From Escherichia coli (lineage in GTDB: Bacteria; Pseudomonadota; Gammaproteobacteria; Enterobacterales; Enterobacteriaceae), in assembly GCF_017348835.2 (NCBI RefSeq), contig NZ_CP071375.1: a stretch of 64,000 nt of DNA; one strand, written 5' to 3'. A model generated the notes under the pieces. That model was not told the DNA's origin. It saw only the letters and a program-made list of their open reading frames with translations, and ran no database searches. Position 1 is the first letter of the stretch, and the number at the start of each line of letters is the position of its first letter. The position numbers and the translations under genes were made by a program. This document shows positions 3,230-50,275 of this stretch, in pieces.

Positions 3230-4529
3230 TCTCCCGCATATTGCCAGCATGGCTTTTAATGAGCCGCTGATGCTTGAACCCGCCTATGCGCGGGTTTTCT
3301 TTTGTGCGCTTGCAGGCCAGCTTGGGATCAGCCGCCTGACGGATGCAGTATCCGGCGACAGCCTGACTGCCGGAGAGGCACCCGCGGCGCTGGCGTTATC
3401 CGGTGATGATGACGGACCACGACAGGCCCGGAGTTATCAGGTCATGAACGGCATCGCCGTGCTGCCGGTGTCCGGTACGCTGGTCAGCCGGACGCGGGCG
3501 CTGCAGCCGTATTCGGGGATGACCGGTTACAACGGCATTATCGCCCGTCTGCAACAGGCTGCCAGCGACCCGATGGTGGACGGCATTCTGCTCGATATGG
3601 ACACACCGGGCGGAATGGTGGCGGGAGCATTTGACTGTGCTGACATCATCGCCCGTGTGCGTGACATAAAACCGGTATGGGCGCTGGCCAACGACATGAA
3701 CTGCAGTGCAGGTCAGCTGCTTGCCAGCGCCGCCTCCCGGCGTCTGGTCACGCAGACCGCCCGGACAGGCTCCATCGGCGTCATGATGGCTCACAGTAAT
3801 TACGGTGCTGCCCTGGAGAAACAGGGCGTGGAAATCACGCTGATTTACAGCGGCAGCCATAAGGTGGATGGCAACCCCTACAGCCATCTACCGGGTGATG
3901 TCCGGGAAACACTGCAGTCCCGGATGGATGCAACCCGCCGGATGTTTGCGCAGAAGGTGTCGGCATATACCGGCCTGTCCGTGCAGGCTGTGCTGGATAC
4001 CGAGGCTGCAGTGTACAGCGGTCAGGAGGCCATTGATGCCGGACTGGCTGATGAACTTGTCAACAGCACCGATGCGATCACCGTTATGCGTGATGCACTG
4101 GATGCACGTAAATCCCGTCTCTCAGGAGGGCGAATGACCAAAGAGACTCAATCAACAACTGTTTCAGCCACTGCTTCGCAGGCTGACGTTACTGGCGTGG
4201 TGCCAGCGATGGAGGGCGAAAACGCCAGCGCGGCGCAGCCGGACGTGAACGCGCAGATCACCGCTGCGGTTGCGGCAGAAAACAGCCGCATTATGGGGAT
4301 CCTCAACTGTGAGGAGGCTCACGGACGCGAAGAACAGGCCCGCGTGCTGGCAGAAACCCCCGGTATGACCGTGGAAACGGCCCGCCGCATTCTGGCCGCA
4401 GCACCACAGAGTGCACAGGCGCGCAGTGATACTGCGCTGGATCGTCTGATGCAGGGGGCACCGGCACCGCTGGCTGCAGGTAACCCGGCATCTGATGCCG
4501 TTAACGATTTGCTGAACACACCAGTGTAA
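3210..4529 (+). CDS. C: Head maturation protease / minor capsid protein C (S49 ClpP-like family)
   Basis: GTG start at 3210 gives 439 aa beginning MTAELRNLPHIASMAF as in lambda gpC; the track ORF 3075-4529 is the same frame with an upstream extension. Confidence 0.9.
3924..4529 (+). CDS. Nu3: Scaffolding protein Nu3, nested in-frame in the 3' part of C
   Basis: In-frame internal ATG 714 nt after the C start, the same spacing as lambda Nu3. Confidence 0.7.
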   Translation: MDATRRMFAQKVSAYTGLSVQAVLDTEAAVYSGQEAIDAGLADELVNSTDAITVMRDALDARKSRLSGGRMTKETQSTTVSATASQADVTGVVPAMEGENASAAQPDVNAQITAAVAAENSRIMGILNCEEAHGREEQARVLAETPGMTVETARRILAAAPQSAQARSDTALDRLMQGAPAPLAAGNPASDAVNDLLNTPV

Positions 4530-5993: not shown

Positions 5994-6389
5994 ATGACGA
6001 AAGATGAACTGATTGCCCGTCTTCAGGTGCTGGGTGAGCAACTGAACCGTGATGTCAGCCTGACGGGGACGAAAGAAGAACTGGCACTCCGTGTGGCAGA
6101 GCTGGAAGAGGAGCTTGATGACACGGATGACGCTGCCGGTCAGGACACATCTGTCAGCCCGGAAAATGCGCTGACCGGACATGAAAATGAGGTTGTATCA
6201 GCGCAGCCGGATACCGTGACTGATACGGCTGATCTGGTCACGGTTGTGGCACTGGTGACGCTGCATACTGATGCACTTCACGCCACGCGGGATGAGGCTG
6301 TGGCATTTGTGCTGCCGGGAACGGCGTTCCGTGTCTCTGCCGGTGTGGCAGCTGAAATGACAGAGCGCGGCCTGGCCAGAATGCAATAA
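5994..6389 (+). CDS. FI: DNA packaging protein FI
   Basis: 132 aa beginning MTKDELIARL, ggagg RBS at 5985-5989. Confidence 0.9.
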   Translation: MTKDELIARLQVLGEQLNRDVSLTGTKEELALRVAELEEELDDTDDAAGQDTSVSPENALTGHENEVVSAQPDTVTDTADLVTVVALVTLHTDALHATRDEAVAFVLPGTAFRVSAGVAAEMTERGLARMQ

Positions 6390-6400
6390 CGGGAGGCGCT

Positions 6401-6775
6401 GTGGCTGATTTCGATAACCTGTTCGATGCTGCCATTGCCTGCGCCGATGAAACGATACGCGGGTACATGGGAACGTCAGCCACCATGACATCCGGTGAGC
6501 AGTCCGGTGCTGTGATACGTGGTGTTTTTGATGACCCTGAAAATATCAGCTATGCCGGACAGGGCGTGCGCGTTGAAGGCTCCAGCCCGTCCCTGTTTGT
6601 CCGGACTGATGATGTGCGGCAGCTGCGGCGCGGCGACACGCTGACCATCGGTGAGGAAAACTTCTGGATAGACCGGATTTCGCCGGATGATGGCGGAAGC
6701 TGTCATCTCTGGCTTGGGCGGGGCGTACCGCCTGCCGTTAACCGTCGCCGCTGGAAGGGGGATGTATGGCCATAA
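6401..6775 (+). CDS. FII: Head-tail connector / head completion protein FII
   Basis: Begins MADFDNLFDAAIA; ORF is 124 aa, slightly longer than my recollection of lambda FII, and overlaps the Z start. Confidence 0.85.
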   Translation: MADFDNLFDAAIACADETIRGYMGTSATMTSGEQSGAVIRGVFDDPENISYAGQGVRVEGSSPSLFVRTDDVRQLRRGDTLTIGEENFWIDRISPDDGGSCHLWLGRGVPPAVNRRRWKGDVWP

Positions 6776-7344
6776 AAGGTCTTGAGCAGGCCGTTGAAAA
6801 CCTCAGCCGTATCAGCAGAACGGCGGTGCCCGGTGCCGCCGCAATGGCCATTAACCGCGTTGCTTCATCCGCGATATCGCAGTCGGTGTCACAGGTTGCC
6901 CGTGAGACAAAGGTACGCCGGAAACTGGTAAAGGAAAGGGCCAGGCTGAAAAGGGCCACGGTCAAAAATCCGCAGGCCAGAATCAAGGTTAACCGGGGGG
7001 ATTTGCCCGTAATCAAGCTGGGTAATGCGCGGGTTGTCCTTTCGCGCCGCAGGCGTCGTAAAAAGGGGCAGCGTTCATCCCTGAAAGGTGGCGGCAGCGT
7101 GCTTGTGGTGGGTAACCGTCGTATTCCCGGCGCGTTTATTCAGCAACTGAAAAATGGCCGGTGGCATGTTATGCAGCGTGTGGCCGGGAAAAACCGTTAC
7201 CCCATTGATGTGGTGAAAATCCCGATGGCGGTGCCGCTGACCACGGCGTTTAAACAAAATATTGAGCGGATACGGCGTGAACGTCTTCCGAAAGAGCTGG
7301 GCTATGCGCTGCAGCATCAACTGAGGATGGTAATAAAGCGATGA
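6766..7344 (+). CDS. Z: Tail completion protein Z
   Basis: 192 aa beginning MAIKGLEQAVENL, lambda order. Confidence 0.92.
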   Translation: MAIKGLEQAVENLSRISRTAVPGAAAMAINRVASSAISQSVSQVARETKVRRKLVKERARLKRATVKNPQARIKVNRGDLPVIKLGNARVVLSRRRRRKKGQRSSLKGGGSVLVVGNRRIPGAFIQQLKNGRWHVMQRVAGKNRYPIDVVKIPMAVPLTTAFKQNIERIRRERLPKELGYALQHQLRMVIKR

Positions 7345-7736
7345 AACATACTGAACTCCGTGCAGCCGTACTGGATGCACTGGAGAAGCATGACACCGGG
7401 GCGACGTTTTTTGATGGTCGCCCCGCTGTTTTTGATGAGGCGGATTTTCCGGCAGTTGCCGTTTATCTCACCGGCGCTGAATACACGGGCGAAGAGCTGG
7501 ACAGCGATACCTGGCAGGCGGAGCTGCATATCGAAGTTTTCCTGCCTGCTCAGGTGCCGGATTCAGAGCTGGATGCGTGGATGGAGTCCCGGATTTATCC
7601 GGTGATGAGCGATATCCCGGCACTGTCAGAGTTGATCACCAGTATGGTGGCCAGTGGCTATGACTACCGACGCGACGATGATGCGGGCCTGTGGAGTTCA
7701 GCCGATCTGACTTATGTCATTACCTATGAAATGTGA
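7341..7736 (+). CDS. U: Tail terminator protein U
   Basis: 131 aa beginning [18 protein letters not shown] overlap with Z. Confidence 0.92.
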
Positions 7737-7743
7737 GGACGCT

Positions 7744-8484
7744 ATGCCTGTACCAAATCCTGTAATGCCGGTGAAAGGTGCCGGGACCACCCTGTGGGTT
7801 TATAAGGGGAGCGGTGACCCTTATGCGAATCCGCTTTCAGACGTTGACTGGTCGCGTCTGGCAAAAGTTAAAGACCTGACGCCCGGCGAACTGACCGCTG
7901 AGTCCTATGACGACAGCTATCTCGATGATGAAGATGCGGACTGGACTGCGACCGGGCAGGGGCAGAAATCAGCCGGAGATACCAGCTTCACGCTGGCGTG
8001 GATGCCCGGAGAGCAGGGGCAGCAGGCGCTGCTGGCGTGGTTTAATGAAGGTGATACCCGTGCCTATAAAATCCGCTTCCCGAACGGCACGGTCGATGTG
8101 TTCCGTGGCTGGGTCAGCAGTATCGGTAAAGCGGTGACGGCGAAGGAAGTGATCACCCGCACGGTGAAGGTCACCAATGTGGGACGTCCGTCGATGGCAG
8201 AAGATCGCAGCACGGTCACAGCGGCAACCGGCATGACCGTGACGCCTGCCAGCACCTCGGTGGTGAAAGGGCAGAGCACCACGCTGACCGTGGCATTCCA
8301 GCCGGAAGGCGCAACCGACAAGAGCTTCCGTGCGGTGTCTGCGGATAAAACAAAAGCCACCGTGTCGGTCAGTGGTATGACCATCACCGTGAAAGGTGTT
8401 GCTGCAGGCAAGGTCAACATTCCGGTCGTATCCGGTAATGGTGAACTTGCTGCGGTTGCAGAAATCACTGTCACCGACAGTTAA
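7744..8484 (+). CDS. V: Major tail tube protein V with C-terminal Ig-like domain
   Basis: 246 aa beginning [14 protein letters not shown]; the track ORF starts 30 nt upstream in the same frame. Confidence 0.93.
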
Positions 8485-8499: not shown

Positions 8500-8922
8500 A
8501 TGTTCCTGAAAACCGAATCATTTGAACATAACGGCGTGACCGTCACGCTTTCTGAACTTTCAGCCCTGCAGCGTATTGAGCATCTCGCCCTGATGAAACG
8601 GCAGGCAGAACAGGCGGAGTCAGACAGCAACCGGAAGTTTACAGTGGAAGACGCCATCAGAACCGGTGCTTTTGTGGTGGCGATGTCCCTGTGGCATAAC
8701 CATCCGCAGAAGACAAAGCAGCCTTCCATGAATGAAGCCGTTAAACAGATTGAGCAGGAAGTGCTTACCACCTGGCCCACAGAGGCAATTTCTCATGCTG
8801 AAAACGTGGTGTACCGGCTGTCCGGTATGTATGAGTTTGTGGTGAATGATGCCCCTGAACAGGCAGAGGACGCCGGGCCTGCAGAGCCTGTTTCTGCGGG
8901 AAAGTGTTCGACGGTGAGCTGA
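8500..8922 (+). CDS. G: Tail assembly chaperone G
   Basis: 140 aa beginning MFLKTESFEHNGVTV. Confidence 0.92.
   Translation: MFLKTESFEHNGVTVTLSELSALQRIEHLALMKRQAEQAESDSNRKFTVEDAIRTGAFVVAMSLWHNHPQKTKQPSMNEAVKQIEQEVLTTWPTEAISHAENVVYRLSGMYEFVVNDAPEQAEDAGPAEPVSAGKCSTVS
8898..8904 (+). promoter_or_regulatory. Programmed -1 ribosomal frameshift slippery heptamer G GGA AAG (G to G-T fusion)
   Basis: Heptamer sits in the G zero frame as X XXY YYZ just before the G stop; the -1 frame continues open to 9338. Confidence 0.85.
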
Positions 8923-9338
8923 GTTTTGCCCTGAAACTGGCGCGCGAGATGGGGCGACCCGACTGGCGTGCCATGCTTGCCGGGATGTCATCCACGGAGT
9001 ATGCCGACTGGCACCGCTTTTACAGTACCCATTATTTTCATGATGTTCTGCTGGATATGCACTTTTCCGGGCTGACGTACACCGTGCTCAGCCTGTTTTT
9101 CAGCGATCCGGATATGCATCCGCTGGATTTCAGTCTGCTGAACCGGCGTGAGGCTGACGAAGAGCCTGAAGATGATGTGCTGATGCAGAAAGCGGCAGGG
9201 CTTGCCGGAGGCGTCCGCTTTGGCCCGGACGGGAATGAAGTTATCCCCGCTTCCCCGGATGTGGCGGACATGACGGAGGATGACGTAATGCTGATGACAG
9301 TATCAGAAGGGATCGCAGGAGGAGTCCGGTATGGCTGA
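8904..9338 (+). CDS. T: Tail assembly chaperone T frame, expected to be made only as the G-T frameshift fusion
   Basis: -1 frame ORF overlapping the end of G and ending at the start of H. Confidence 0.85.
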   Translation: MFDGELSFALKLAREMGRPDWRAMLAGMSSTEYADWHRFYSTHYFHDVLLDMHFSGLTYTVLSLFFSDPDMHPLDFSLLNRREADEEPEDDVLMQKAAGLAGGVRFGPDGNEVIPASPDVADMTEDDVMLMTVSEGIAGGVRYG

Positions 9339-18441: not shown

Positions 18442-21402
18442 ATGGCAGTAAAGATTTCAGGTGTACTGAAAGACGGCACAGGAAAACCGGTACAGAACTG
18501 CATAATCCAGCTGAAAGCAAAACGTAACAGCACCACGGTGGTGGTGAACACGCTGGCCTCAGAAAATCCGGATGAAGCCGGGCGTTACAGCATGGACGTT
18601 GAGTACGGTCAGTACAGCGTTATTCTGTTGGTGGAGGGATTCCCGCCGTCACATGCCGGGACCATCACCGTGTATGAAGATTCTCAACCCGGTACGCTGA
18701 ATGATTTTCTCGGTGCCATGACGGAGGATGATGCCCGTCCGGAGGCACTGCGTCGTTTTGAACTGATGGTGGAAGAGGTGGCGCGTAACGCGTCCGTGGT
18801 GGCACAGAACACGGCAGCCGCAAAGAAGTCAGCCAGTGATGCCAGCACATCTGCCAGTGAGGCGGCAACCCGTGCGACTGATGCTGCAGATTCAGCACGT
18901 GCAGCCAGCACGTCAGCCGGACAGGCCGCGTCGTCGGCTCAGTCAGCGTCTTCCAGCGCAGGAACGGCATCAGCAAAAGCCTCTGAGGCATCAAAAAGTG
19001 CTGCCGCTGCAGAGTCCTCAAAAAGCGCGGCGGCTACCAGTGCCGGTGCGGCGAAAACGTCAGAAACGAATGCGGCAGCGTCAGAACAATCAGCCGCCAC
19101 TTCTGCATCCACCGCGACCACGAAAGCGTCAGAAGCTGCCACCTCAGCCCGGGATGCGGCGGCCTCAAAAGAGGCGGCAAAATCATCAGAAACGAGCGCA
19201 GCCTCGAGCGCCAGTAATGCCGCTTCCTCGGCAACGGCGGCAGGAAATTCCGCGAAGGCGGCAAAGACGTCTGAGACAAACGCTAAGTCCTCTGAAACGG
19301 CAGCAGCACAGAGTGCCTCCGCAGGCGCAGACTCAAAAACAGCGGCTGCATCATCTGCCAGCGCCGCGTCAACAAGTGCCGGGCAGGCCTCAGCCAGTGC
19401 CACCGCTGCCGGAAAGTCGGCAGAAAGTGCCGCATCGTCTGCTTCAACAGCCACAACGAAGGCTGGCGAAGCCACTGAACAGGCCAGCGCAGCAGCGAGT
19501 TCTGCTTCCGCAGCGAAGACATCCGAAACGAACGCGAAAGCGTCGGAAACCAGCGCAGAATCCTCAAAAACTGCTGCCGCATCGTCAGCCAGTTCGGCGG
19601 CGTCATCGGCATCATCTGCGTCTGCTTCAAAAGATGAGGCGACCAGACAAGCGTCAGCAGCGAAGAGCAGCGCCACGACGGCATCCACGAAGGCGACAGA
19701 GGCAGCTGGCAGTGCGACGGCGGCAGCTCAGAGCAAAAGTACGGCGGAATCCGCGGCAACGCGCGCCGAGACAGCGGCAAAACGGGCAGAGGATATTGCA
19801 TCCGCCGTGGCGCTTGAAGATGCGAGCACGACGAAAAAGGGGATAGTACAGCTCAGCAGTGCGACTAACAGCACTTCCGAGTCACTGGCGGCAACGCCAA
19901 AAGCAGTTAAGTCCGCGTATGACCTGGCTAACGGGAAATACACCGCACAGGATGCAACGACAGCACAGAAAGGGATAGTTCAGCTCAGCAGCGCGACCAA
20001 CAGCACATCTGAAATGCTGGCGGCAACGCCAAAGTCGGTAAAGGCAGCCTATGACCTTGCTAACGGGAAATATACCGCTCAGGACGCTACGACAGCACAA
20101 AAAGGAATTATCCAGCTCAGTAGTGCAACCAACAGCGCATCTGAAACGCTTGCCGCGACACCGAAAGCAGTGAAAGCAGCTAATGATAATGCGAATGGTC
20201 GGGTACCTTCTGCCCGTAAGGTGAATGGTAAGGCGCTTTCAGCGGATATAACACTGACGCCGAAAGATATTGGTACGCTTAACTCAACAACAATGTCATT
20301 CAGCGGTGGTGCTGGTTGGTTCAAATTAGCAACGGTAACCATGCCACAGGCGAGTTCTGTTGTTTCAATTACGTTGATTGGTGGCGCGGGATTTAACGTG
20401 GGGTCACCTCAACAGGCAGGTATATCTGAACTTGTTTTGCGTGCAGGTAATGGTAATCCGAAGGGGATTACTGGTGCTTTATGGCAGCGCACATCGACAG
20501 GGTTTACAAATTTTGCCTGGGTCAATACATCTGGTGATACTTACGATATTTACGTTGCAATCGGAAATTATGCGACTGGTGTAAATATTCAATGGGATTA
20601 TACCAGTAATGCCAGCGTGACTATTCATACGTCACCAGCATATTCTGCTAATAAGCCGGAAGGGTTAACGGACGGTACAGTTTATTCACTCTATACGCCA
20701 TCAGAGCAGTTTTATCCGCCTGGCGCACCAATCCCGTGGCCATCAGATACCGTTCCGTCTGGTTATGCCCTGATGCAGGGGCAGACTTTTGACAAATCTG
20801 CATACCCGAAACTTGCAGCCGCTTATCCGTCAGGCGTGATCCCTGATATGCGTGGCTGGACGATTAAGGGCAAACCCGCCAGTGGTCGTGCCGTATTGTC
20901 TCAGGAACAGGACGGCATTAAATCGCACACCCACAGCGCCAGCGCATCCAGTACGGATTTGGGGACGAAAACCACATCGTCGTTTGATTACGGCACTAAA
21001 TCCACGAATAACACCGGGGCTCATACGCACAGTCTGAGCGGCTCTACAAGCTCGGCCGGAGCACACTCGCACGTTGATGGTCGCAGGTTTAATACAAGCA
21101 CTTTTAAAGACACCTATCAGTATGGTTCTACAGCTGTCGGAAGTAACTCATACCAGGTACAAGGGGCGGTTGGTCTGGGCATTGGCACGATGGCGAATAC
21201 GAACTCTGCTGGCGCGCATACCCACTCACTGTCCGGCACTGCTGCAAGCGCAGGTGCACACGCACATACTGTCGGTATTGGTGCTCATACGCACTCCGTT
21301 GCGATTGGCTCACATGGACACACCATCACCGTTAACGCTGCTGGTAACGCGGAAAACACCGTCAAAAACATCGCATTTAACTATATTGTGAGGCTTGCAT
21401 AA
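18442..21402 (+). CDS. stf: Side tail fibre protein
   Basis: 986 aa: ~330-aa Ala/Ser/Thr-rich low-complexity segment, three tandem 44-aa tail fibre repeats, His-rich distal part with GAHTHS motifs. Confidence 0.9.
19819..20214 (+). repeat. Three tandem 132-bp coding repeats inside stf (phage tail fibre repeat)
   Basis: Unit [44 protein letters not shown] repeated at 19819, 19951 and 20083. Confidence 0.85.
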
Positions 21403-21986
21403 TGGCATTCAGAATGAGTGAACAAGCACGGACCATAAAAATTTATAATCTGCTGGCCGGAACTAATGAATTTATTGGTGAAGGTGATGCATATATTCCG
21501 CCTCATACAGGTCTGCCAGCAAACAGTACCGATATTGCACCACCAGATATTCCTGCTGGCTTTGTGGCTGTTTTCAACAGTGATGAGGCATCGTGGCATC
21601 TCGTTGAAGACCATCTGGGTAAAACGGTTTATGACGTAGCGTCAGGGGACGAGTTATTTATTTCTGAACTCGGTCCGTTACCGGAAAATGTTACCTGGTT
21701 ATCGCCGGAAGGGGAGTTTCAGAAGTGGAACGGCACAGCCTGGGTGAAAGATGCAGAAGCAGAAAAACTGTTCCGGATCCGAGAGGCGGAAGAAATAAAA
21801 AACAGCCTGATGCAGGTAGCCAGTGAGCATATTGCGCCACTTCAGGATGCTGTAGATCTGGAAATCGCAACGGAGGAAGAAACCTCATTGTTGGAAGCCT
21901 GGAAAAAGTATCGGGTGTTGCTGAACCGTGTTGATACATCAACTGCACCTGATATTGAGTGGCCTACGAATCCTGTCAGGGAGTAA
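21402..21986 (+). CDS. tfa: Tail fibre assembly chaperone
   Basis: 194 aa beginning [17 protein letters not shown]; start overlaps the stf stop (TAATG). Confidence 0.9.
21821..21941 (+). repeat. Direct repeat copy A (3' part of tfa)
   Basis: ~88 percent identical to 22870-22990, including a 40-nt identical core. Confidence 0.8.
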
Positions 21987-22040: not shown

Positions 22041-22709
22041 CTATTTTTTCCCTGAAGCGGAAAACATTACTACAGTACCTTGAACCTTGGTTTTAACATT
22101 CTCGAAATGCTCTGAGAGTATATGTGTTAAGCCTTCTTCGGAATCTTTTGTGTTTGAAAAGATGCCTTTCTGATTGTAAATGCGCATCAGTTTTTGACCG
22201 AAGCTATTGTGCACAACTCCATCGCCAAGAATTGTGGCTCCGTATAGAGTTCCATCGTCAGTTAAGGCCTGCGCCGCATTGCGTATTACACAGCTTTTTG
22301 TAGATATATTTCCAGGCAGGCAGTGAAGAAGGTAAAACATGGAAATGGAATCAAATTGACCATGTAACGCCGCGGGATAAGGTTCAAAAACATCATGGCT
22401 AATTTTATGTTTAATTTTTGATTCCCCAGCCCTTGTAGATGCCGCGTTCAGGCTAGCTTCGTTCAAATCCATTAAAGATATCAGACTACTCTCAGGTACG
22501 TGAGTAAGGTAAAACCCAGTTCCAACACCAATATCCAGATGGTTGTTACCTAAATGTTCCAGAAAGTGTGGAAGAAGGTGTTCCTTTGTAGGACATCCCC
22601 ATGCAAGCCGATTTGATACTCCCAAAACCCACCAGTCATAAAGCTTTAGGGTAAGTGGTGTGTAAATTTTAGCCCCATCATCTGTGTTTTTTTTCATTAA
22701 TTTCACCAT
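22041..22709 (-). CDS. ybcY: Class I SAM-dependent methyltransferase (prophage cargo, YbcY-like)
   Basis: 222 aa with GxGxG SAM motif LDIGVGTGFY; no DPPY/NPPY DNA-methylase motif; symbol from remembered K-12 DLP12 gene order. Confidence 0.75.
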   Translation of the reverse strand: MVKLMKKNTDDGAKIYTPLTLKLYDWWVLGVSNRLAWGCPTKEHLLPHFLEHLGNNHLDIGVGTGFYLTHVPESSLISLMDLNEASLNAASTRAGESKIKHKISHDVFEPYPAALHGQFDSISMFYLLHCLPGNISTKSCVIRNAAQALTDDGTLYGATILGDGVVHNSFGQKLMRIYNQKGIFSNTKDSEEGLTHILSEHFENVKTKVQGTVVMFSASGKK

Positions 22710-23254: not shown

Positions 23255-24739
23255 TTATTGTATTTCTGCTTCAGAATTTCCTGGGCAGTATATATTTTCT
23301 ATTTTTTGTGGAGTGATCAGGTGATGTACAACTGCTTTATCTACACATAAATTAACTCCGGTGAGAGCTAATGTATGCCCATCACCATTTATTGTTAGTA
23401 ACGGGCTGGAAAATTTCTCTGCCATCTTACGGGCATTAATCCAGGGCGTTGTTGGGTCGTATTTGTGTGCTATAAACAGTAAACCAGAGGGCAGAACAGT
23501 ATTTTTCAGGCGAGTTTTGTTCAGGTCGCTATGTATTGGCCATAATTCACAAAAATCAGGTGAATCGGAACGTCCATTGTCAAAGTTAATAGCCGGGAAG
23601 GCATTCGCAAGAGCGTCTTTTCGGGATTTTCGCTCTTCTGGTGTTAATTGCTCATCCCCCTGATCTACACAGAGGATTACCCCCGAAGCATCGCTTGACT
23701 CTTCTGAGGCTATCGGAGCACTGAGCGCAGTTTCAATTTCATTACTGACAATCCCCTGAGAGAACTGGCGTATGGCAGTTGCAAGGGTTGGCCATGATGA
23801 ACGCCATAGCAGAAGGTCTGTTGTTAATGATATGAGTTCATCTGAAGATATATTTTCTCTCTTACTGTCTAATAAAGGTTTGTGATGTAATTTTGATAAT
23901 AGCTCATGGAACTGAGTTATTGCCTTATCTCTGTCTGAAGAAAGCGGGCAACTTTTTGTACGCGCACACCAGGATGCAAAGCGATCAAACGTTTCCTGAT
24001 AACTCTGTGCCTGTTTGAGTTGCCATGTGAAGTTGTCCTCCAGGTCATCGATATCGACGACTCCATCAAGAACGATAGATCTTACGTTGTAGGGAAAACG
24101 TTCTGCATATAAGGCTGCAATTTGAGTTCCATACGAATACGCCACGGCTGTCAGTTGTTTATCCCCCAAGGCTTGCCTAATACGATCAATATCGTATACA
24201 GCCTCGTTAGAGCCGATATGGCGAATGACTTCGGCTCCGGTATTATGGATACAGGCATTAATTTTATTTAATACTTGTTGCTTTTCGGTTATGTTTTCCT
24301 GAGTCTCTGTATCTGATTGCCGGCAGTTTATTGTCGGAGTGGACTGTCCGACGCCTCGAGGATCAAATCCAATAATATCCCATGACTCACGAAGATTTGT
24401 GACTGGCCAGTCAAAGTTAATATAAGGATTTATGCCTGGTAACCCGGGACCACCACTTATTATCAGGATACTTCCTTTATGCTTGCTTTTTGCCGGCAAT
24501 TTTGTCAACGCTAGTTTGACTTGTGATTTTTTTTCATAAGAAGCATCTCCGCCTGTGTCTGTATATTTTAATGGAACAGACAAATAACCACATAGTAAGT
24601 CAGGAGACGGTTTTTCCTCACCAAACCAGTGGTTGAATTGACTGGCCATACAGGATTGCCACTGTATCTGCTGGGCAGATACGGTTACTGGTAGAAGTAA
24701 CGTTAAAACAACTTTGAAATGAGTAATTATTTTTCGCAT
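23255..24739 (-). CDS. Secreted alpha/beta-hydrolase, peptidase S33 / TAP-like family, unknown substrate
   Basis: 494 aa; signal peptide MRKIITHFKVVLTLLLPVTVSAQQ; GGPG oxyanion motif, FDPRGVGQS, nucleophile elbow AYSYG, C-terminal Asp (KYDPTTP) and His (NGDGHT); low-GC gene. Confidence 0.7.
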   Translation of the reverse strand: MRKIITHFKVVLTLLLPVTVSAQQIQWQSCMASQFNHWFGEEKPSPDLLCGYLSVPLKYTDTGGDASYEKKSQVKLALTKLPAKSKHKGSILIISGGPGLPGINPYINFDWPVTNLRESWDIIGFDPRGVGQSTPTINCRQSDTETQENITEKQQVLNKINACIHNTGAEVIRHIGSNEAVYDIDRIRQALGDKQLTAVAYSYGTQIAALYAERFPYNVRSIVLDGVVDIDDLEDNFTWQLKQAQSYQETFDRFASWCARTKSCPLSSDRDKAITQFHELLSKLHHKPLLDSKRENISSDELISLTTDLLLWRSSWPTLATAIRQFSQGIVSNEIETALSAPIASEESSDASGVILCVDQGDEQLTPEERKSRKDALANAFPAINFDNGRSDSPDFCELWPIHSDLNKTRLKNTVLPSGLLFIAHKYDPTTPWINARKMAEKFSSPLLTINGDGHTLALTGVNLCVDKAVVHHLITPQKIENIYCPGNSEAEIQ

Positions 24740-48812: not shown

Positions 48813-49243
48813 TTATGTTGGCGTTTTCTATTCAGTATAGAAGTGGGAGCGGCCAGGCGAGATGCGGAAGTTCTGGAATGTTTCTTTTTTTGGTGATGGT
48901 GACTGAAGCAATTTGGCTACTTTTGCAATGTGACAAGTTATGGCACGGCTGGCTGGTGGCGAAGAATTTTGATGATTGGGGCGCGCAGAATAAAACTGGC
49001 TCAGCTTCAGTTGATCAAATGAGGAGTGAGAAGTCCGAAACAAGACTCACTGTATAAATAAACAGCTATTTTATTGAGGAAGGGTAAGATAACGGCGGGT
49101 GCCTGAAGCTTTCCGGTTTCAGGTTAACTCTGAGGTCTGGAAAGATGAAGCCCCAGGAGATATTTCTATCAACCCTGGGGCTACCTACCCAAACCTGAAC
49201 AATTTGGATGGTAGTCCCTTCTTCGCATGGAGGCAATATAAAC

Positions 49244-49396
49244 ATGCTGACGAAATATGCCCTTGTGGCAGTCATAGTGCTGTGTTTGACAGTGCTGGGA
49301 TTTACGCTTCTGGTCGGAGACTCGTTGTGTGAGTTTACGGTGAAGGAACGTAATATTGAGTTCAGGGCTGTTCTCGCTTACGAACCGAAGAAGTAG
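49244..49396 (+). CDS. hokE: Type I toxin HokE (Hok/Gef family)
   Basis: 50 aa [50 protein letters not shown]; the track ORF has an in-frame upstream extension from 49208. Confidence 0.88.
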
Positions 49397-50175: not shown

Positions 50176-50275
50176 GCCTGATGCGCTACGCTTATCAGGC
50201 CTACGTGGTCCTGCAATATATTGAATTGGCAAGATTTTTGTAGGCCGGATAAGGCGTTCACGCCGCATCCGGCAT
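50176..50275. repeat. Pair of REP elements between entD and fepA
   Basis: gcctgatgcgctacgcttatcaggcctac and gtaggccggataaggcgttcacgccgcatccggca. Confidence 0.85.

Follow-up and report, generated by a model that had tools for sequence, protein, structure and literature searches.

The stretch analysed here, hereafter the window, comprises 64,000 nucleotides of Escherichia coli DNA, of which positions 1 to about 22000 are occupied by a lambdoid prophage. Its late genes run in the order W-B-C-D-E-FI-FII-Z-U-V-G/T-H-M-L-K-I-J, all of them open and colinear with those of Escherichia phage Perceval and of lambda. The junction of FII and Z carries the following features.

6401..6775, + strand: FII, head-tail joining (head closure) protein (ORF list; Pfam Phage_attach; RefSeq annotation in PE164 and O26 11368).
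6752..6754, + strand: TGG (Trp) codon where lambda FII has the stop TGA (gap-free alignment).
6755..6772, + strand: six more codons of the FII extension, KGDVWP (sequence and translation).
6773..6775, + strand: new FII stop TAA, lying across Z codons 3-4 (ATG GCC ATA AAA).
6766..7344, + strand: Z, minor tail (neck) protein of 192 aa (ORF list; Pfam Minor_tail_Z).

The FII ORF begins with GTG and encodes 124 aa, with GVPPAVNRRRWKGDVWP* as the C-terminal end of its translation in the ORF list; the C-terminal sequence of the ORF in the window is ...GRGVPPAVNRRRWKGDVWP*, with the ATG of Z at 6766. The first-pass annotation had reported that the FII frame continues seven codons beyond ...PAVNRRR and overlaps Z by 10 nt, and the ORFs (6401..6775 for FII, ATG at 6766 for Z; overlap 6766-6775) bear this out. 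The end given there for lambda FII is also correct: in lambda (NC_001416), FII (7612-7965) encodes 117 aa and closes with RRR-TGA, and Z begins 11 nt later, at 7977.

Window 6390-6810 was aligned with lambda, phage Perceval and the prophage of E. coli O26:H11 11368. The small indel that had been suggested for the FII/Z junction is absent from this alignment, which runs through 421 columns without a gap and holds one A-to-G substitution instead; lambda, checked for the same C-terminus and overlap, has neither and stops at RRR. The sole junction difference from lambda falls at alignment column 365 (window 6754, corresponding to lambda 7965), where the window has G and both lambda and Perceval have A. 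This A-to-G transition affects the third base of the FII stop codon and turns TGA into TGG. An insertion or deletion that shifted the frame or removed the stop thus deserves practically no credence: beyond the observed extension of FII itself nothing speaks in its favour, and the spacing from RRR to the ATG of Z is the same in lambda, Perceval and O26 11368, with the stop codon one base apart.

Single-base differences can be errors, and the TGG record of strain 3385 is riddled with frameshifts; nevertheless, an error of sequencing or assembly in the source genome was rejected as the origin of TGG and is extremely improbable, since many complete genomes, obtained independently in different laboratories, contain the same 400 nt at 100% identity, the 55-mer carrying TGG is found in 202 complete genomes, and the exact protein is present on at least 1,000 contigs. 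The extension of FII is a deterministic feature of the sequence, and chance is therefore not the issue. Over window 6384-6888, base 6754 is the single difference from phage Perceval, and TGG is therefore a recent derivative of the TGA haplotype. Across the late region as a whole, the window is colinear with Perceval at 96.8% identity over 18.8 kb.

The tail added to FII after RRR consists of seven residues, WKGDVWP. The bases 3′ of the variant codon, AAGGGGGATGTATGGCCATAA, are the same in the window, lambda, Perceval and O26 11368 and read K-G-D-V-W-P-stop in the FII frame; those at 6755..6772, identical in lambda, form there the untranslated FII-Z spacer plus Z codons 1-3. The spacer contains no stop in the FII frame, so that whichever way the FII stop is lost, the result is exactly seven additional residues and a 10-nt overlap. 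The Shine-Dalgarno sequence of Z, AAGGGGGA, is located at 6755-6762, within the former FII-Z spacer. Gene overlaps of 1, 4 and 20 nt are found elsewhere in the late operon and are normal there. When 90 nt around the FII-Z junction were folded, no significant RNA structure was found with either allele (z = 0.2 for TGG and 0.4 for TGA), and thus there is no structure there to disturb; neither predicted fold pairs the variant base.

Family membership of the 124-aa protein was examined by profile, by full-length similarity and by gene position. FII matches Pfam PF05354 (Phage_attach) over residues 8-105 with 70.1 bits (cut-off 26; E = 2.6e-19), and its neighbour Z matches PF06763 (Minor_tail_Z) with E = 5e-82. 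Residues 1-117 align with residues 1-117 of the lambda structures 1K0H and 8K37 (phmmer E = 1.6e-74), and the lambda gpFII structures matched over their full length by these residues are 1K0H, 2KX4, 8K37, 8XOW, 8XPM and 8XQB. The position between FI and Z within the colinear late genes is that expected of FII. The one departure is from the typical gpFII form of 117 aa with a PPAxxRRR-stop end: RRR is present and is followed by seven more residues. A length of 117 aa is a habit of the family and not a defining criterion, and the assignment to gpFII stands. The function of this family (head closure Hc1, stopper) is to make a hexameric ring upon gpW, to which the tail capped by gpU attaches. RefSeq already lists the exact 124-aa protein of the window as WP_000752961.1, 'head-tail joining protein'; the TGG allele of FII is thus known and catalogued, an ordinary minority allele of a well-known gene.

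The FII C-terminus was then considered across the family in a survey of 191 FII homolog clusters. Full-length homologs, at 59-99% identity, are overwhelmingly 117 aa long and end in PPAxxRRR; those of 117 aa come from E. coli, Salmonella, Citrobacter, Cronobacter, Leclercia, Klebsiella, Enterobacter and Trabulsiella. One exception is a Salmonella lineage, present on 112 contigs, in which FII ends in RRRRG (119 aa, a natural extension by two residues) and the FII stop lies within the ribosome-binding site of Z. In the cryo-EM structure of the lambda virion, residues 4-117 of gpFII are ordered, six copies of the protein form the stopper ring, and the C-terminal loop 108-117 touches the O-loop of gpU, the tail terminator (PMC10721106); a second study describes essentially the same lambda neck (PMC12617516). 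As loop 108-117 lies at gpU, the WKGDVWP tail is expected to emerge at the head-tail interface. A literature search for C-terminal extension or tagging of gpFII returned nothing directly relevant.

The frequency of the two alleles was determined by typing with 55-mers centred on the variant base, every 28-nt megablast seed being required to span that base; with this demand for an exact 28-mer, about 1,190 of the 4,892 places matched by a 400-nt query stay untyped. Among 5,426 complete E. coli genomes, TGG was found at 213 places in 202 genomes and TGA at 3,493 places in 2,621 genomes, so that TGG accounts for 5.7% of the typed places. Outside the genomes only TGA was seen (84 INPHARED phage records by 55-mer, and 86 IMG/VR contigs and 47 metagenome contigs by an NNN pattern scan), and the scans of those 86 and 47 contigs revealed no codon other than TGA at the stop position. 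Relative to the genome frequency, the count of zero TGG among these 217 sequences gives a Fisher P value of 7.5e-6, and zero among the 84 phage isolates alone gives 0.014, both tests assuming an independence of samples that does not hold here. The TGG carriers listed are largely STEC of O26, O103 and O111, plus isolates from pig, cat and otter, and as many as five copies of this FII-Z region occur within one carrier genome.

Over its first 25 kb, the window matches E. coli PE164, a pig isolate (NZ_CP114128.1), at 100% identity. The prophage sits at the argU (DLP12) site, flanked by tRNA-Arg with intD and, at its opposite end, by ompT-envY-ybcH-nfrAB-cus. In PE164, the intD of this prophage, outside the window and beside tRNA-Arg (argU), is annotated by RefSeq as a pseudogene with a frameshift and an internal stop (NZ_CP114128.1 3611227-3612389). 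Every packaging, lysis, head and tail gene is annotated as intact, the frames from W through J being open and of lambda-like length. The loss of intD has probably left the prophage, whose late genes are intact, fixed at its site.

Near the end of G (8500-8922), the slippery heptamer GGGAAAG of the lambda G/T -1 programmed frameshift is kept at 8898-8904, and the T-frame ORF spans 8904-9338. Colinearity with Perceval ends at about 18790, within the side tail fibre gene (18442-21402), a 986-codon open frame annotated as 'prophage tail fiber N-terminal domain-containing protein'. The tail fibre assembly gene that follows (21402-21986) contains a full-length match to Rfam IS009 (21745-21943; 225 bits). 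Between the tail fibre genes and ompT lies cargo that includes a SAM-dependent methyltransferase (22041-22709) and an alpha/beta hydrolase (23255-24739). Further along, an IS3-family element (26700-28470), with orfA and orfB joined by a programmed frameshift and an Rfam ALIL pseudoknot (27007-27123; 120 bits), splits the host regulator gene envY, present in RefSeq as two partial pieces. In its chromosomal part, the window also has Rfam matches to the sok antitoxin RNA (49097-49252, + strand; 87 bits) and to the ES036 sRNA (50197-50238, - strand; 42 bits), which presumably represent a chromosomal hok/sok-type locus.

Six TGG places were sampled for their genomic location. Four of them are in the same argU/nfrAB region, while one is at the Rac site (ttcA...ompN) of strain 03_3013 (NZ_CP074958.1, about 2902500-2949600), in an apparently complete prophage with intact intR, xisR, recET, replication, antiterminator, lysis and morphogenesis genes. 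This prophage also has DUF1076-domain genes at its tail end. The sixth, in the icd/e14-site prophage of strain 3385, was not counted as a third TGG site, nearly every gene of that record being frameshifted. The argU-site copy in O26:H11 11368 (NC_013361.1, about 638849-640445) is in a clearly defective prophage; it is cut by an IS66-family element, and its head protease gene (S49 peptidase, lambda C) is without its N-terminus. Between the Rac-site and argU prophages, the D, FI, FII and Z proteins are identical, whereas U, V, G, T and H differ; TGG therefore appears to travel on a short recombined block, and the shared D-to-Z segment points to block exchange between co-resident prophages.

Given where the tail is expected to emerge, it has to be asked whether TGG survives at the cost of virion assembly. 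WKGDVWP placed behind the gpU-docking RRR tail might weaken or abolish joining, in which case TGG would persist only in prophages that need no virions, as a step of decay or domestication. The head and tail genes of the window other than FII argue against this, being intact and colinear with those of the viable Perceval at 96.8% identity, as does the occurrence of TGG in the Rac-site prophage with its int, xis, replication, lysis and morphogenesis genes intact. The 117-aa length and RRR end conserved across the family are what such a reading would predict, as is the contact of the C-terminal loop with gpU in the virion (PMC10721106); still, the Salmonella RRRRG lineage, on more than 100 contigs, indicates that the end is not absolutely fixed. 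The distribution of alleles, with TGG in 0 of 84 phage isolates and 0 of 133 viral or metagenome contigs versus 5.7% of typed chromosomal places, is also in line with inactivation, yet this contrast is confounded by clonal sampling. The intD pseudogene here and the interruption of the O26 11368 copy by the IS66-family element are in its favour too. Taken together, inactivation is a rather unlikely account of the allele.

An adaptive role is much less probable still. Under it, the tail would alter gpFII-gpU matching among co-resident lambdoid prophages, or the position of the FII stop would retune Z by translational coupling. The presence of TGG at two or more prophage sites and in several serogroups would fit, yet clonal descent and block recombination explain such spread; carrier genomes with up to five FII-Z copies are a further point in its favour. 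TGG shows no enrichment, being a minority of 5.7% that is absent outside chromosomes. An independent stop-loss with the same geometry in a distant homolog can be cited in support, though it is on a single contig, and the sequence of the extension is dictated by the ribosome-binding site and start of Z and so is not free to evolve. It is likewise very doubtful that the seven-residue tail at the gpFII-gpU interface serves as a head-tail joining switch that blocks or biases the attachment of tails, for instance among the several co-resident lambdoid prophages of STEC.

The explanation that we favour, and with considerable confidence, is a stop loss by a single transition, giving a derived minority polymorphism that recombination has moved and that most probably is neutral or mildly deleterious, not adaptive. 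With the A-to-G change at its third base, the FII stop (TGA to TGG) is gone, and ribosomes translating FII insert Trp, go on through the former spacer (KGDVWP) and terminate at the TAA made by Z codons 3-4, their product being gpFII plus WKGDVWP. They would thereby pass over the Shine-Dalgarno sequence and start codon of Z and stop 7 nt downstream of the ATG, a stop-start layout whose putative coupling geometry is in keeping with the 1-, 4- and 20-nt overlaps of the operon. The TGG allele arose from a Perceval-like TGA haplotype, has been passed between resident lambdoid prophages by recombination, and persists in the prophages of E. coli as a minority polymorphism. No stop codon is leakier in E. 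coli than UGA, which is misread as Trp. From this leakiness, wild-type lambda may itself make traces of the 124-aa gpFII by read-through of UGA with Trp.

Within this explanation, the substitution, where it came from, how frequent each allele is and how conserved the 117-aa end is are shown by the data, and the effects of TGG on fitness, on gpFII-gpU joining and on translation of Z are ones that we infer. The 117-aa length and RRR-stop are strongly conserved, to about 60% identity and over several genera, which is not easily squared with a purely neutral reading; the absence of TGG from the 217 outside sequences counts against that reading as well, those samples not being independent. A mild defect of FII is plausible given the conserved RRR-stop end and the location of the tail at the interface. 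With intD a pseudogene, selection on FII may be relaxed, so that harm to virion assembly is possible; against a severe defect speak the Salmonella variant with two extra residues and the apparently complete prophage that carries TGG.

The importance of the TGG allele of FII is small. In a tightly packed phage operon such as this, a stop-loss leads to a fixed outcome (seven more residues and a 10-nt overlap), since it is within the conserved start of Z that the FII frame meets its next stop. The allele also provides a gpFII that varies naturally at its C-terminus, at the head-tail interface, and that could be used directly to probe gpFII-gpU docking. The annotation of FII as a 124-aa protein is correct and calls neither for 'repair' to 117 aa nor for a frameshift reading.

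Among known systems, lambda gpFII, the head-tail connector or stopper protein (NP_040589; PDB 1K0H, 8K37), shares with the FII of the window the GTG start, the place between FI and Z and the colinear late operon. Over residues 1-117 the two differ by five substitutions (R14C, I29M, E71D, V90I and V93I); lambda gpFII ends at TGA after 117 aa, 11 nt before Z, whereas the FII of the window has TGG, 124 aa and a 10-nt overlap with Z. The FII of Escherichia phage Perceval (CAH1234776.1), an isolated lambdoid phage, is identical to that of the window over residues 1-117 but keeps the ancestral TGA stop and 117 aa, in place of TGG and 124 aa. WP_000752961.1, as found in E. coli O26:H11 11368, PE164 and many others, is the same allele with the same annotated 10-nt overlap and shows no difference. 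A homolog on Logan contig SRR16828820_178979, 63% identical, is also 124 aa long, with a seven-residue extension after RRR, and, like the FII of the window, has its stop TAA inside Z codons 3-4 and a 10-nt overlap; unlike it, this homolog has CAG (Gln) at the former stop, the extension QGGMLCP and a divergent backbone, and it is found on one contig only. The stop-loss in this homolog is an independent event, one that confirms the fixed seven-residue outcome as set by the downstream sequence.
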